A stretch of 64,000 nucleotides of DNA from Candidatus Poribacteria bacterium (GTDB lineage: Bacteria > Poribacteria > WGA-4E > JAJDTR01). Of the stretch, positions 997-60,639 are shown one piece after another (within the stretch, counting starts at the first letter, position 1; every line of letters begins with the position of its first letter). The stretch spans positions 4,224,001 through 4,288,000 of the forward strand of contig CBDCTK010000002.1 of the NCBI GenBank assembly GCA_965222225.1, given 5' to 3'. The notes beneath the pieces were generated by a model. That model worked only from the letters and a program-made list of their open reading frames with translations, did no database searches and was not told the origin of the DNA. The position numbers were made by a program, and so were the translations under genes.

Positions 997-1092
997 GGAT
1001 CTCTATGGGAGCTCTATCGCGGTCACTACGGGATCTTCTATCGCCTTCGTTAACCACTCTCAGTTGATCGCTCGTTATTCACTCGCTTGATC
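997..1092 (+). repeat. Nested composite of 35-bp micro-elements
   Basis: Three GGA(T/G)C..CTAT heads and two TTGATC tails; same architecture as 57467-57573. Confidence 0.8.
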
Positions 1093-1118: not shown

Positions 1119-1155
1119 GGGATCTCTATCGCATTCGCTAATCGCTCATTTGATC
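1119..1155 (+). repeat. Single 35-bp micro-element inserted in a GTAG-REP hairpin
   Basis: GGGATCTCTATCGCATTCGCTAATCGCTCATTTGATC interrupts GGCTGGTG..GCAGTGCGCACCCTACAAATGTAC; uninterrupted counterpart at about 47180-47212. Confidence 0.85.
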
Positions 1156-12450: not shown

Positions 12451-12487
12451 GGGATCTCTATCGCACTCCTTATTCAGTCGCTTGATC
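12451..12487 (+). repeat. Single 35-bp micro-element in a REP-like (..CCTAC) host
   Basis: GGGATCTCTATCGCACTCCTTATTCAGTCGCTTGATC. Confidence 0.85.
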
Positions 12488-18969: not shown

Positions 18970-19126
18970 GATTAAGCGAGCAAATGGATTGACCGAGATC
19001 GATTTAGCTGATAATGAGGGATCAACCGAACGATGAACTGAGTGGATAACGAAGTCGATAGTAAGTCCTATAGTGAGGGATCAAGGGAACGAACAGTGAC
19101 CGCGATAGAGCTCCCATAGAGATCCC
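18970..19126 (-). repeat. Nested composite of 35-bp micro-elements (minus strand)
   Basis: Outer unit 19020-19126 contains complete inner units at 19079-19115 and 19032-19069; degenerate tails extend to about 18970. Confidence 0.8.
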
Positions 19127-45235: not shown

Positions 45236-45310
45236 GGGATTTTTATCAGGATCTTCTATCGCCTTGGAATCACTATCGCACTCGTTATTCGCTCTCCTGT
45301 TCGTTCCTAC
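45236..45310 (+). repeat. Degenerate nested micro-element cluster in a REP host
   Basis: Three heads (GGGATTTTTATC, GGATCTTCTATCGC, GGAATCACTATCGC) ending at CCTACTAC. Confidence 0.6.
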
Positions 45311-56352: not shown

Positions 56353-56475
56353 TTGTAGGGTGGGCACTGTCCACCAGTCGTTGAACTTGCATGTGAGATG
56401 TTTTGCGCATTACGCAATGCTTCATCGCCATTCCCGTTACGCTTTGATATTCAACACAAAGGATGCAACCCTAAA

Positions 56476-57267
56476 ATGACTCTTACTCCGCAACAATGCA
56501 CCTTCTTCGAATCATTTGGCTATCTGATTCTACCGGACTTGATGACGGACGACGTCGCCTGGATAATTGAGGAGCATCGGAAGGTTTTTGAGCAGAAGGG
56601 CGTCAATCACGACGGATCAAAACGCTCTATGATCGTCCCATTCAGCGATCGGAGCGAGCGACTCTGCACGCTTTTAGACCATCCGAAGGTACTCGGTGCG
56701 CTGAAATCCCTACTCGGCGATGATTTCAACTACGTGGGTGGCGACGGGAACTACTACAGCGGCGAAACCGGATGGCACTCCGACGGTGGGCATCAAGTCG
56801 GTCTCTTCGCCAAATTTCATCTCTATCTTGACCCGCTGGCACGGGATACAGGAAGCATTCGCGTGATTCCCGGCAGTCACCTTATCGGGCCGTGGAGAGA
56901 CCACCTTCAGCGGACTCGTCAGCCAAACGAACTATTAGGAGTACCGGGACGCGATGTTCCATGCATCGCCGCTGAAACCGAACCCGGCGATGTTGTTGTG
57001 TTCAATCATAACATTTACCACGCCTCTTTCGGTGGGGGCACTGCTCGCCGCCACATGTGCCTCAACGTGACGAGCCGAGCAAGAACCGAAGCCGAAATCA
57101 ACGAACTTGACAGCTACCTACGCCCGGGCGGAAGACCGAAGCATTGGCCCGGAAAATATGCGCCCGGCGCACAAGACATCATGCGCAATACGGCTTCTCC
57201 CGAGCGGTATGTCCATCTGGAACAGGTAATTCAACGCGAGCAGTACTATATAAACGCAGCGCAATAA
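56476..57267 (+). CDS. PhyH-family dioxygenase, tandem paralogue 3
   Basis: Start set by homology (MTLTPQQC); WHSD, IRVIPGSH, IYHASFGG. Confidence 0.9.
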   Translation: MTLTPQQCTFFESFGYLILPDLMTDDVAWIIEEHRKVFEQKGVNHDGSKRSMIVPFSDRSERLCTLLDHPKVLGALKSLLGDDFNYVGGDGNYYSGETGWHSDGGHQVGLFAKFHLYLDPLARDTGSIRVIPGSHLIGPWRDHLQRTRQPNELLGVPGRDVPCIAAETEPGDVVVFNHNIYHASFGGGTARRHMCLNVTSRARTEAEINELDSYLRPGGRPKHWPGKYAPGAQDIMRNTASPERYVHLEQVIQREQYYINAAQ

Positions 57268-57353
57268 ATTAAGGGAGCACCACGCACCCGCCTTTGAGTT
57301 TTGTCTATCTTTGTTTATCCCTTGTCGTTTGTGCGTCTTTTACCATCTACCAA

Positions 57354-57650
57354 TAGGACTTACGTAGCAACAGGAGGCAGCTCCGGTGGGCAGGGATTAA
57401 GCAAGCGATAGCGCGTGCGATAGATATGTTTTTGCCCTGCCACGCATGGGCGGTCGCGATCGGGAGAGGATCTCTATGGGAACCCTATCGCACTCACTAC
57501 AAGATCTACTATCGCCTTCGTTATTCACTCAGTTGATCGTTCGCTTGATCGCTCCTTATCCAGTCGCTTGATCTTACAGGGATTGTGCGCAGAAATAGGA
57601 ATTAACCTACTCTGCCGCTAGCTTTTGAGTGTTCAATCGTGTAAGTCCTA
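57354..57650. mobile_element. MITE-like element with TAGGACTTAC/GTAAGTCCTA ends carrying micro-elements
   Basis: Inverted ends at 57354-57363 and 57641-57650; contains a minus-strand micro-element (57395-57427) and a triple nest (57467-57573). Confidence 0.6.
57467..57573 (+). repeat. Triple-nested 35-bp micro-element
   Basis: Three heads followed by three TTGATC tails, parsable as unit within unit within unit. Confidence 0.85.
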
Positions 57651-57710
57651 TACAAACCAAAGGGGATCTGTTTCTCATCGTGCGCCACAATCCAAGGACG
57701 AAACCTCAAA

Positions 57711-58514
57711 ATGTCATTGACCCCACAACAGTGCTCGTTCTTTGAGTCGTTCGGATACATCCTTCTGCCGCGTTTGATGACCGAAGACATTCCTTGGATA
57801 ATTGAGGAACACAGAAGAGTCTTTGAGAAAAAGGGAATCGTACATGACGGAAGCAGGCGTTCTCAGATTGTGCCTTTCAGCGATCAGAGCGAGCGACTCT
57901 GTACTTTACTCGACCATCCCAAAGTGCTCGGTGTACTTACGTCGCTGCTTGGAGACGACTTCAATTATATCGGCGGCGACGGCAACTTCTACAGCGGCGA
58001 CACAAACTGGCATTCCGACGGCTTTCATACAGTCGGTCTTTACGCCAAGTTTCATCTTTATCTCGACCCGCTGACGCGCGACACCGGTTGTATCCGCGTG
58101 ATTCCCGGCAGCCACCTAAGTGGACCATGGCGGAATCAGGCAGAACGTGGTCGCCAATCAAACGAAAATTTTGGAATCCCGGGCAGCGGCGTTCCCTGTG
58201 CCGCCATCGAGACCGAACCCGGTGACATCGTGGTATTCAATCACAATATCCTCCATGCTGCATACGGTGGAGGCACCGCCCGTTGCCACTTTTGTTTGAA
58301 TGTATCACGTCGGGCGAAAACCGAGGCCGAAATCGAAGAGCTCCACAAATACATCCGTCGTCCCGATGGATTGCCTCGTTATCATCCGAGATCCGCCAGT
58401 GTACACTCGGAACTGATGCGCCGTACCGCATCTCCCGCACGAATGCGTCACTTAGAGCAGGTTATCGAATGCGAAAGCCAGTGGCTAACAGCTAGGAGAG
58501 ATTCGCACATATGA
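57711..58514 (+). CDS. PhyH-family dioxygenase, tandem paralogue 4
   Basis: WHSD, IRVIPGSH, ILHAAYGG. Confidence 0.9.
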   Translation: MSLTPQQCSFFESFGYILLPRLMTEDIPWIIEEHRRVFEKKGIVHDGSRRSQIVPFSDQSERLCTLLDHPKVLGVLTSLLGDDFNYIGGDGNFYSGDTNWHSDGFHTVGLYAKFHLYLDPLTRDTGCIRVIPGSHLSGPWRNQAERGRQSNENFGIPGSGVPCAAIETEPGDIVVFNHNILHAAYGGGTARCHFCLNVSRRAKTEAEIEELHKYIRRPDGLPRYHPRSASVHSELMRRTASPARMRHLEQVIECESQWLTARRDSHI

Positions 58515-59347
58515 CAACCTCCGATATACTTGCCGGCGAACCGGAACTCGTTGCAACCGGATTTAAATTCACGGAAGGCCCCGTCTGGCACCCCGATGGC
58601 TATCTCTTCTTGAGCGACATTCCGGCACATCGAATCTTTAAATTGACGCCCGACGGCACTTCGGAAATCTATCGCGAACCCAGCGGCGGTGCCAACGGAT
58701 TAACCTTCGATCGCCAAGGCAGGCTCATTGCGTGTGAATACCACAGCCGTCGCGTTTCCCGCATGGAAATTGACGGCACTATCAGCACCCTCGCAGACAA
58801 CTACCGCGGCAGGCGCTTGAATAGCCCCAATGATGTGGTGGTGAAATCGAACAGCAGCATCTATTTCACCGATCCGTTCTACGGTTTCCCCGCATCCCAG
58901 GAACGTGAACTTGATTTTCAGGGCGTCTACCGCATCGCCGCGGATGGGACAATTTCACTGCTTGTCGAAGATTTCGGTGTTCCAAACGGATTGGCATTCT
59001 CACCGGACGAATGTATCCTGTATATTGACGATTCAAGGCACCAGCATGTCCGCGCCTTCGACGTTTTATCGGACGGCTCCCTCGCCAACGGGCGTATCTT
59101 GATCGATATGACAGCCGATGCGCGAGGCGCCGCAGATGGAATGAAGGTAGATATCGCCGGTAATCTCTATGTCACTGGCGCAGGCGGGACATGGGTTATC
59201 TCTCCGACAGGTGAGCACCTCGGAACCATCGTCACCCCTGAATTGCCGGAGAACTGCGCCTTCGGCGGGCCGGACCATAAGACACTCTTTATCGCAGCCA
59301 GAACCTCAATCTACAGCATTCGGCTCAAAATCAGCGGCGTCCAATAG
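58511..59347 (+). CDS. SMP-30/gluconolactonase family protein
   Basis: FTEGPVW, ANGL, LNSPND, PNGLAFSPD, ADGMKVD. Confidence 0.93.
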   Translation: MTTSDILAGEPELVATGFKFTEGPVWHPDGYLFLSDIPAHRIFKLTPDGTSEIYREPSGGANGLTFDRQGRLIACEYHSRRVSRMEIDGTISTLADNYRGRRLNSPNDVVVKSNSSIYFTDPFYGFPASQERELDFQGVYRIAADGTISLLVEDFGVPNGLAFSPDECILYIDDSRHQHVRAFDVLSDGSLANGRILIDMTADARGAADGMKVDIAGNLYVTGAGGTWVISPTGEHLGTIVTPELPENCAFGGPDHKTLFIAARTSIYSIRLKISGVQ

Positions 59348-59475
59348 TGATTTCCGCGTTATTCGTCATGTCGGCATCGGTGCGTACTATTCTGCTTTTT
59401 TTACGCATTATACCATTTCTCCATATTTACAGCGCATTAATAGCGTCAATCAAGTCTCTCCGAGGCGGGGAAAGG

Positions 59476-59547
59476 GGATTTCTATCGCACGGGACTTACT
59501 ATCGCGCTCCCTGTTCAGTCGCTTGATCGCTATTCGCTTGCTTGATC
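59476..59547 (+). repeat. Double-nested micro-element in the loop of an AGGCGGGG/CCCCGCCT REP hairpin
   Basis: Inner unit 59492-59527 splits outer unit; host stem arms at 59463-59470 and 59547-59554. Confidence 0.85.
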
Positions 59548-59715
59548 CCCGCCTACCGGTTTTGGTGTGCAGGGCATGGTTGGTATCGGTCTTTTCACAA
59601 TAGTATAATTGGGAAAACCCAATGCAACATTATTCAATCGAGATGGTATTACGTATTATTTTCTTAGCTTCTTCTCACGCCTCATTTTGATTCTTGACCA
59701 AGGAAACGTAAACAC

Positions 59716-60639
59716 ATGCAATATCGTCAGTTGGGTAATTCCGGGATTGAAGTACCCGTTCTAGGGCTGGGCGGTTGGACACTGGGCGGAGCAGCTTACG
59801 GAGCCGTTGACCGGGACACGGCGGTGACCGCCATGCGCACAGCATTCGACCTCGGCATCACTCTCATTGACGGCGCCCCGTACTATGGCCAGACTGAGAC
59901 GTGGTTCGGAGAGGAATTTCGCTCTCGACGCCACGAAGTGTTCCTCATCACCAAGTCTCAGAGTCGACCTTACACAAAGGTAAATCTATTTGCCAACATT
60001 GAAGGCAGCCTAAAAAATTTACGCACAGATTACGCCGACCTCTATGTAATCTTTCCCGATGCGAATACTTCCGTGGACGACATCCTTGATGGGTTAATTC
60101 AGGTAAAAGAATCTGGCAAAGCCCGCGTCGTGGGCGTCACCAATTGGGATAGCTGTATGCTACAGGCATCCGTTGGCAAGGTAGAACTGGCTACCAATCA
60201 GCTCGGTTACAGCCTTTTCGATCGCTATTGGCAAAAGACCGTATTCCCAACTTGCGCCGAGCTAGGTATCGGTGTTATGGCATACAGTCCGCTCGCTCAG
60301 GGACTCCTCAGCGGCGCTATTACCCGCGACACCAAACTTCCGCCGGACGACGTGCGAACACATAACAATCTGTACGCCCCCGAAAACCTCCCCACGAATT
60401 TGACCGTAGTGGAGAGGTTGAATGAATTCGCAAGTGAACGCGGGTTGACACTCTCCCAACTGGCGCTGGCATGGACGCTCACCAATCCGCTCGTAAGTGT
60501 GGCAATCATCGGAACCCGGCGCCCAAATCGGTTGGCGGAAGATATCGGCGCGCTTGATGCGCAATTAACTCCTGTGGAGTTAGCCCGACTTGAAAGCATT
60601 GTCGCCAATATCTCCGGAGTTGCCCCACGCTTCGGTTGA
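59716..60639 (+). CDS. Aldo/keto reductase
   Basis: MQYRQLGNSG, D..YYG, SLKNLRTDYADLY, AYSPLAQGLL. Confidence 0.92.
   Translation: MQYRQLGNSGIEVPVLGLGGWTLGGAAYGAVDRDTAVTAMRTAFDLGITLIDGAPYYGQTETWFGEEFRSRRHEVFLITKSQSRPYTKVNLFANIEGSLKNLRTDYADLYVIFPDANTSVDDILDGLIQVKESGKARVVGVTNWDSCMLQASVGKVELATNQLGYSLFDRYWQKTVFPTCAELGIGVMAYSPLAQGLLSGAITRDTKLPPDDVRTHNNLYAPENLPTNLTVVERLNEFASERGLTLSQLALAWTLTNPLVSVAIIGTRRPNRLAEDIGALDAQLTPVELARLESIVANISGVAPRFG

Follow-up and report, generated by a model that had tools for sequence, protein, structure and literature searches.

A repeat unit of 37-38 bases without genes has inserted many times into its own copies in the genome of a sponge-symbiont bacterium of the phylum Poribacteria, at a small number of internal sites and mostly in the orientation of the host copy. 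A genome-wide recursive parse with a tabulation of sites and orientations, as envisaged in a preliminary description of this DNA, resolved 303 such events. The window, i.e., the whole 64-kb stretch of DNA analyzed here, belongs to a 5.7-Mb genome in two contigs with 50% G+C. The unit is probably a non-coding, non-autonomous mobile element that is mobilized in trans, and it is among the smallest mobile elements seen.

Read in the orientation used throughout, the unit consists of a purine-rich head, CTATCGC, a mini-hairpin, and TTGATC. The head has 7 or 8 bases, most commonly in the form GGGATCT, and its first three bases are variable (GGG, AGG, or AAG). The mini-hairpin is composed of V1-TC-V2, a 5-base loop (TRTYC), and V2'-TC-V1', so that two variable 2-bp stems flank a conserved TC/TC pair. 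An exact-frame pattern matched 669 copies in the genome, a model tolerating two mismatches matched 968 uninterrupted units, and the recursive parse yielded 1259 units genome-wide after the nested ones had been resolved. Units account for 0.81% of the contig. The ends are constant (from the purine head to TTGATC) and donor flank is absent in the 968 simple units that were parsed. Most positions are intergenic, with 836/978 falling outside crude open reading frames, and unit orientation has no clear link to gene direction (259 in the same direction and 304 in the opposite one). An Rfam search of positions 57300-57750 returned a single match, to a long non-coding RNA, that lies outside the nested composite discussed below and is attributable to chance (E value, 0.8).

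The head motif occurs nine times in the window, against an expectation of 0.5. At 57467..57573 (plus strand), the arrangement previously likened to a Russian doll was recovered by the recursive parser with all three levels, the three units being joined at two sites. The outer unit (57467-57477 plus 57551-57573) holds its guest after the CTAT of its head and has lost CGC. The middle unit (57478..57550, made up of 57478-57500 plus 57539-57550) hosts the inner unit in its loop, the insertion lying at core position 16 with 2 bases skipped and one model mismatch. The innermost unit (57501..57538) is complete, with 38 bases, an 8-base head, and no mismatch to the core model. The V pairs are restored across the guests, as had been claimed: GC/GC and CT/AG in the outer unit, and AC/GT and AC/GC (with one A.C) in the middle one. 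The outermost head had been described as one base short; it actually lacks three (CGC), or two if the last C of the guest is counted as the target's, and this loss is systematic, recurring in 69 events genome-wide.

Two other composites in the window had been reported to use the same two sites. A hand parse of 997..1092 (plus strand) gave three heads and two tails, in which a guest after CTAT (from 1007) itself hosts a loop guest (1030-1069) and the outer body occupies 1070-1092. The two sites are those reported, but the 3' arm and the tail of the middle unit are missing; the parser skipped this composite because the inner unit carries an extra TC. At 19020..19126 (minus strand), where irregularities stop the parser, a hand parse agreed with the earlier reading of one outer unit with two side-by-side guests that differ in their V letters. 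One guest (19079-19115, also recovered by the recursive parser) is at the CTAT site, and a degenerate one (19032-19069) is in the loop. A third site is indeed in use at 59475..59547 (plus strand), where a depth-2 nest lies within a repetitive extragenic palindrome (REP) hairpin and the guest (59491-59528) follows the V1 of its host, whose TC it replaces. The window also contains a decayed nest at 45250..45302 (plus strand), in which the head, V1, and T of a host are followed by a guest with 2 mismatches (45266-45302) and the 3' half of the host is unrecognizable. Simple units are present at 12451..12487 (plus strand; no model mismatch) and at 1119..1155 (plus strand), the latter in the 5' arm of a GTAG-type REP, the remainder of which is at ~1156-1172.

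For the genome-wide parse, complete units were excised and their flanks were then tested for forming another unit, with up to 4 model positions allowed to be missing at the joint. Guests were carried by 291/1259 units, corresponding to the 303 insertion events, and 302/1255 units (24%) sit inside other units. The depth of the top-level structures was 1 in 708 cases, 2 in 208, 3 in 37, and 4 in 3. A chance origin of the nesting is excluded: an enclosing unit was found for 259/965 excised units, but for none when the model was reversed or replaced by any of 10 column-shuffled versions. Neither orientation nor position is random. Co-oriented guests outnumber inverted ones by 266 to 37 (binomial p, 7e-44), and five internal sites account for 225/303 events. 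With the caret marking the insertion point and brackets the host bases lost, these sites are CTAT^(CGC) with 69 events, CTATC^(GC) with 44 co-oriented and 32 inverted guests, V1^(TC) with 32, the loop site TRT^(YC) with 28, and V1-T^(C+V2) with 20. In 14/20 hosts of the last class V2' is GC, so that the lost string is again CGC. The inverted guests are concentrated at CTATC^, which accounts for 36/37 of them. The earlier statement that nested units are always co-oriented holds within the window but describes only 266/303 events in the genome.

With each insertion, 2-4 bases of the target give way to the unit, the locus becomes 34-36 bases longer, and no target duplication arises. The replaced strings, in REPs and units alike, always end in C, the last base of the unit, and at least a C is always common to the right junction and the guest end. 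The hosts at some sites are far from a random sample of units. V2 is AC in 23/28 loop hosts, compared to 15% of the population, and hosts of guests after V1 have AC as V1 in 26/32 cases and GT as V2 in 20/32. Guest heads differ by site as well: 7-base heads make up 65/69 guests at CTAT^ and 20/20 at V1-T^, and 8-base heads make up 42/44 co-oriented and 31/32 inverted guests at CTATC^, 28/32 at V1^, and 21/28 in the loop. This correlation may reflect sub-families that have a target preference of their own. A candidate rule by which head length and the number of lost bases would sum to 10 was rejected; it is a mere trend and is broken by one pair of empty and filled sites.

The nests could in principle descend from a few copied composites, and the variable letters bear on this directly. 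Distinct combinations of host and guest V genotypes were found in 22/28 loop nests, 31/32 nests after V1, 62/69 at CTAT^, and 44/44 co-oriented nests at CTATC^; in the remaining two main site classes, the values were 19/20 and 31/32. The composites are therefore not descendants of a single ancestor with identical V letters, the genotypes being nearly all distinct. Host arms pair across the guest, with Watson-Crick V2/V2' pairs in 24/28 loop-site hosts. Direct evidence that a unit has dropped into an existing unit comes from five paralogous pairs in the same genome, in which a plain unit is matched by the same unit with one guest (one pair at the loop, two at CTAT^, one after V1, and one with an inverted guest at CTATC^). 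The flanks match at 28-35/35 positions on each side, and at up to 95/100, and the filled copies are 34-36 bases longer than their empty paralogues. The host V letters are identical in 4/5 pairs; the pair after V1 differs at two transition positions. Hosts are also more decayed than guests, as expected if the host came first, with an average of 0.89 mismatches compared to 0.44 (p, 2e-11) and paired stems in 60% compared to 81%. The V genotypes, the bias in site and orientation, and the empty/filled pairs support the original proposal of repeated, strand-specific self-insertion, as opposed to slippage.

Besides independent insertion, copying of entire composites has taken place in some cases. 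A single loop-nested type, with AC/GT as host V2 and CT/AG as guest V1, accounts for 14/16 exact loop nests in this genome and is also found in four congeners, which hold other loop nests with different letters as well, all of them pairing across the guest. Both 35-base flanks are held in common in 32 groups of structures. A REP-plus-unit type with the V letters AG/AT includes 21 identical units, indicating that REP-plus-unit composites have also been copied whole.

The GTAG-tagged REPs of this genome are a second host for the unit. Their empty forms occur 62, 48, and 9 times, and in filled REPs the unit is located at fixed points, where it has replaced TGC, GC, or ATGC. The orientation of the unit in REP hosts is fixed. 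CTAC is present within 16 bases 3' of the unit tail in 339/953 structures, and GTAG is found 5' of the head in 23/953, about the background rate; the complement strand of the unit thus carries the GTAG of the REP on its 5' side. In an orthologous spacer of two congeners, the REP is empty in one and filled in the other.

The mini-hairpin is defined by covariation. The mutual information between V1 and V1' is 1.78 bits, compared to 0.09 after shuffling, and between V2 and V2' it is 1.68 compared to 0.07; the TC/TC between the stems never pairs. Watson-Crick pairs fill 3261 of the 3860 stem positions, compared to 425 with A.C and only 60 with G.T. The excess of A.C, together with the TC/TC, implies that the complement strand tolerates G.T wobbles as mismatches and conserves a tandem G.A. 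The mean energy of the implied 17-base hairpin, calculated with RNA parameters, is +2.8 kcal/mol on the strand read here and -1.0 kcal/mol on the complement; with DNA parameters, the energy is positive on both strands, and DNA folding of the whole unit is no better than that of shuffled sequences (z-scores of 0 or above). Because nearest-neighbor stability is lacking, the case for the hairpin rests on covariation, and the structure probably depends on non-canonical pairs or on a protein. The hairpin named in the preliminary description is thus upheld by covariation but not by predicted stability. V1 and V2 are themselves linked (0.75 bits compared to 0.05), with 37/48 combinations populated, as expected for sub-families that stem from several master lineages. 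Unit orientation tracks the sign of the local GC skew with an odds ratio of 4.8 (p, 2e-26; 809 single-orientation clusters, the copies being not fully independent). The G-rich, presumed lagging-template strand is enriched for the strand of the unit that folds less well, which makes for a poor fit to the IS608 model.

The distribution of the unit is patchy. Among 176 genomes of the phylum, at least 100 copies were found only in two of 31 genera. All 10 genomes of the window's genus are unit-rich (330-859 exact matches), as are 4/4 genomes of a second genus, which belongs to another family (114-146 copies). Six genomes hold 1-14 copies and 156 hold none, and the reversed pattern was found in none of the 176. 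Exact head-site nests number 36 in this genome, compared to 1 across the four genomes of the second genus. In a genus otherwise without the unit, one genome (G066) contains 14 exact units, of which 13 share a strand, as well as 2 head-site nests on the small contigs C72 and C91; its units may result from contamination or from transfer out of a unit-rich genome.

The spacer that carries the depth-3 composite lies between two PhyH-family genes. The genes at 56398-60639 of the window encode two paralogous PhyH-family dioxygenases, an SMP-30/gluconolactonase, and an aldo/keto reductase, and further PhyH paralogues with ~70% DNA identity are located upstream. None of 9 congeners carries the composite in the orthologous spacer, which is unalignable among them. 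At four loop-nested loci of one congener (G001), a close relative lacks the respective stretches or is not syntenic, so these loci are uninformative on host-only states. Sections of the composite, and of its junctions to unique flanking sequence, are present in contigs assembled from runs of four studies. In three studies, contigs reach position 57555 with 0-3 differences, and a contig of the fourth covers 57474-57610; on the right side, contigs cover 57509-58100, 57545-57829, and 57527-57902. The composite is therefore not an artifact of one assembly. No contig in the four studies spans it entirely, and none of these contigs, which can hide rare variants, joins the flanks over an empty site, the joints among the matches listed coming from other copies. 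There is accordingly no sign of current activity at this locus, and the comparison of nesting depth that had been proposed for 57467-57573 yielded neither an empty variant in the contigs of the four studies nor alignable orthologous spacers.

The explanation that we favor, and judge to be probably correct, is a mobile non-coding unit with single-strand integration catalyzed in trans. The unit would be cut and joined by a protein supplied in trans, and the reaction would act on one DNA strand only; the fixed orientation in both kinds of host hairpin and the bias relative to GC skew suggest that it sees a single strand. The strand whose fold matters would be the complement of the one read here, with its tandem G.A and G.T, and sub-families with different head types would prefer different sites. 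By analogy alone, the leading, though tentative, candidate for the enzyme would be a transposase of the HUH/Y1 group, either REP-associated or IS200-type. The known HUH single-strand transposases insert precisely next to a fixed short target, whereas the present unit replaces bases and has diverse left flanks, and the guests at CTATC^ in both orientations (44 and 32) count against a single-strand model. A bolder and rather doubtful proposal is that the unit represents a new class of mobile DNA. It would be a 37-base single-stranded cassette that undergoes two strand exchanges a few bases apart and swaps 2-4 bases at exposed spots of hairpins, with the choice of target set by its own head variant, and would be mainly a parasite of REPs and of itself.

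Searches for Y1_Tnp, RVT_1, IS110, and TnpB in this genome and its relatives revealed none that is co-distributed with the unit. Y1 genes are present in 34/41 relatives regardless of the presence of the unit. One Y1 transposase gene of this genome (G000) has units on both sides, is IS200-type according to NCBIfam, and scores below the REP_Tyr_transpos cut-off. Orthologues with 70-79% identity are present in a unit-free genus, and a search with this gene as the query gave no match in 2/4 genomes of the second unit-rich genus (g4). IS110 was not found in this genome. In 41 relatives of the order, TnpB (PF07282) was detected in 1/14 unit-rich genomes (0/10 in the window's genus and 1/4 in the second genus), compared to 19/27 others, and some of the TnpB-bearing genomes among the latter hold more than 100 copies; if anything, the distribution is inverse to that of the unit, related genomes not being independent samples. 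The sole reverse transcriptase found in the genome is a 670-amino-acid protein of the AbiA type (PADLOC, 255 bits). It is encoded beside a type I restriction R-subunit gene in a defense island (L055, G000:C2:4498000-4504000). RVT_1 was not found in 3/10 genomes of the window's genus or in 2/4 genomes of the second unit-rich genus.

The negative enzyme search would be expected if no dedicated enzyme were involved and the unit spread by copy-choice, with replication stalling at a REP or unit hairpin and the nascent strand jumping to a unit elsewhere, copying it, and returning. Small target losses and junction microhomology would then be by-products, in keeping with the loss of 2-4 target bases and the C, at least, that the right junction has in common with the guest end; the targets are indeed hairpin-forming repeats, and orientation does track GC skew. 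We nevertheless regard this route as unlikely, since the guest ends are constant and free of donor flank in 968 simple units, the sites are few and sequence-specific, different sub-families favor different sites, and only two genera are unit-rich even though REP-type hairpins and replication are universal. Retro-insertion through RNA appears more unlikely still. Here a transcript of the unit would be reverse-transcribed from the 3' end of the target, untemplated bases would give rise to the variable purine head, and the target would lose a few bases. The variable first three bases and length of the head, the small target deletions, the 1-2 bases of microhomology at the 3' junction, and the favorable folding of the complement strand as RNA all point in this direction, and the accessible text on mitochondrial hairpin elements, which also lack target duplications, proposes an RNA route for them (PMC2800124). 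Against it stand the reverse transcriptase complement, which in this genome consists of the AbiA-type defense enzyme beside a restriction gene and is without an RVT_1 match in 3/10 and 2/4 genomes of the two unit-rich genera, and the lack of a clear link between unit orientation and gene direction.

Two further alternatives would remove the need for repeated self-insertion. If one or a few ancestral composites had formed once and been amplified whole, the nesting would be uninformative on self-insertion. Wholesale copying did contribute, as seen in the loop-nested type that makes up 14/16 exact loop nests in this genome and recurs in four other genomes of the genus, the 21 identical units of the AG/AT REP-plus-unit form, and the 32 groups with common flanks. 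As the sole cause, it is largely refuted by the mostly distinct V genotypes across the six main site classes, by loop nests in congeners with other letters that pair across the guest, and by the empty/filled paralogue pairs, and we consider it very improbable. The lowest probability is assigned to the idea that the units are selected functional motifs, e.g., protein-binding or transcript-end signals, with stacking due to selection for arrays. Conserved unpaired bases beside covarying stems, the mostly intergenic location (836/978 outside crude open reading frames), and the fixation of the composite across samples would suit such motifs; the absence of an orientation preference relative to genes and of an Rfam match, a locus that is not conserved between species, the decay of interrupted hosts, and the patchy occurrence in two genera among 31 do not. 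Mobility through single-strand integration in trans thus remains our preferred reading.

The closest published parallel comes from Nostoc and its small dispersed repeats (SDR1-8). Elements of this type, 21-27 bases long, were reportedly described in Nostoc punctiforme and its relatives by Elhai et al. 2008 (Genome Res 18:1484); some are said to share a hairpin backed by compensatory changes, some to lie inside their own copies in complex nested insertions, and one to be confined to HIP1, a short palindrome. Movement through RNA was reportedly suggested. Both the Nostoc repeats and the present unit are very small, gene-less, dispersed, and nested in their own copies, here in 303 events to a depth of up to 4. 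Judged by their descriptions, the two are set apart by length (37-38 rather than 21-27 bases), phylum (Poribacteria), conserved blocks, the tandem-mismatch mini-hairpin, the REP as a second host, and the replacement of 2-4 target bases. The accessible parts of two papers describe SDR5 as a 21-base repeat associated with HIP1 and state that these repeats are not found outside the Nostocaceae (PMC5861425, PMC13756078). HIP1 sites number only 240 in the genome studied here, which speaks against the cyanobacterial origin that its GATCGC-like blocks might suggest.

Resemblances to other repeat families are partial. According to the available text on REPs, BIMEs, and REPINs with their RAYT proteins, these are short extragenic hairpins in hundreds of copies, and REPs have compensatory stem changes, mosaic clustering, and no target duplication (PMC3116915). 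The unit is likewise a short extragenic imperfect palindrome in hundreds of copies and has these features. It differs from REPs in lacking a GTAG or CGTC tag, in having its own conserved blocks (CTATCGC and TTGATC), in having a stem of merely 2+2 bp with a conserved mismatch, and in parasitizing REPs; unlike REPINs, the units do not form inverted doublets but are single or nested in co-orientation, with inverted pairs in 37 events. IS200/IS605 elements move by "peel and paste," which is strand-specific and hairpin-dependent, leaves no target duplication, and ties orientation to replication direction; they insert precisely 3' of one fixed 4- to 5-base target, and nothing is lost. The unit shares the strand specificity, the dependence on hairpins, and the link of orientation to replication (odds ratio, 4.8). 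In contrast to these elements, its left flanks are diverse (CTAT, CTATC, CGCAC, CCTT, and ACTAT in units; CGCAG, GCAAG, and CTGGT in REPs), it replaces 2-4 bases, and TnpB is present in 0/10 genomes of the genus. It is distinguished from the MITEs of DDE transposons by the absence of target duplication and by ends with only partial, 6-base complementarity. Hairpin and double-hairpin elements of fungal and sponge mitochondria are similarly tiny and without flanking duplications, but they are organellar and AT- or GC-rich, with long stable stems, and the accessible text of the source makes no mention of fixed-site self-nesting (PMC2800124). A search of the literature on Poribacteria repeats found nothing relevant, although supplementary tables might hold some.

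The unit accordingly belongs with the very small self-nesting hairpin repeats, a known kind, to which the present analysis adds a genome-wide insertion grammar, controls, empty/filled pairs, and a replacement rule. To our knowledge, almost every mobile element that is understood either codes for its own enzyme or imitates the termini of another element that does so. There is hardly any documentation of elements a few dozen bases long that choose targets, keep their orientation, and stack, and we know of none with a known mechanism. The 303 self-insertions, five empty/filled pairs, site rules, and replacement of 2-4 bases form a large and clean data set, which makes the way in which the smallest mobile elements move a testable question. 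The nesting also shows how mosaics of intergenic repeats arise in an uncultured symbiont phylum. Stacked units break short-read assemblies, in which contigs end inside the composite.

Two larger arrangements that involve REPs were observed in addition. At 1093-1175 of the window and at many other loci in the genome, a larger composite repeat recurs that consists of a stretch ending in CTGGGGCTTTTAGAGGCTGG, a GTAG-type REP, and a ACAAACTGTACTT-like sequence, in that order, and units occupy two different points of its REP. Outside the window, a tandem array of five 38-base modules is located at G000:C2 ~1578250-1578530 (minus strand), each module comprising CTACAAGA followed by a core unit, with variable letters that differ in each. 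Similar copies, of the forms CTACAAGA(A)+core and CCACCAAGA+core, are found at C2:1545-1556 kb. The five-module array may have grown by repeated insertion beside a REP tag and not by duplication.
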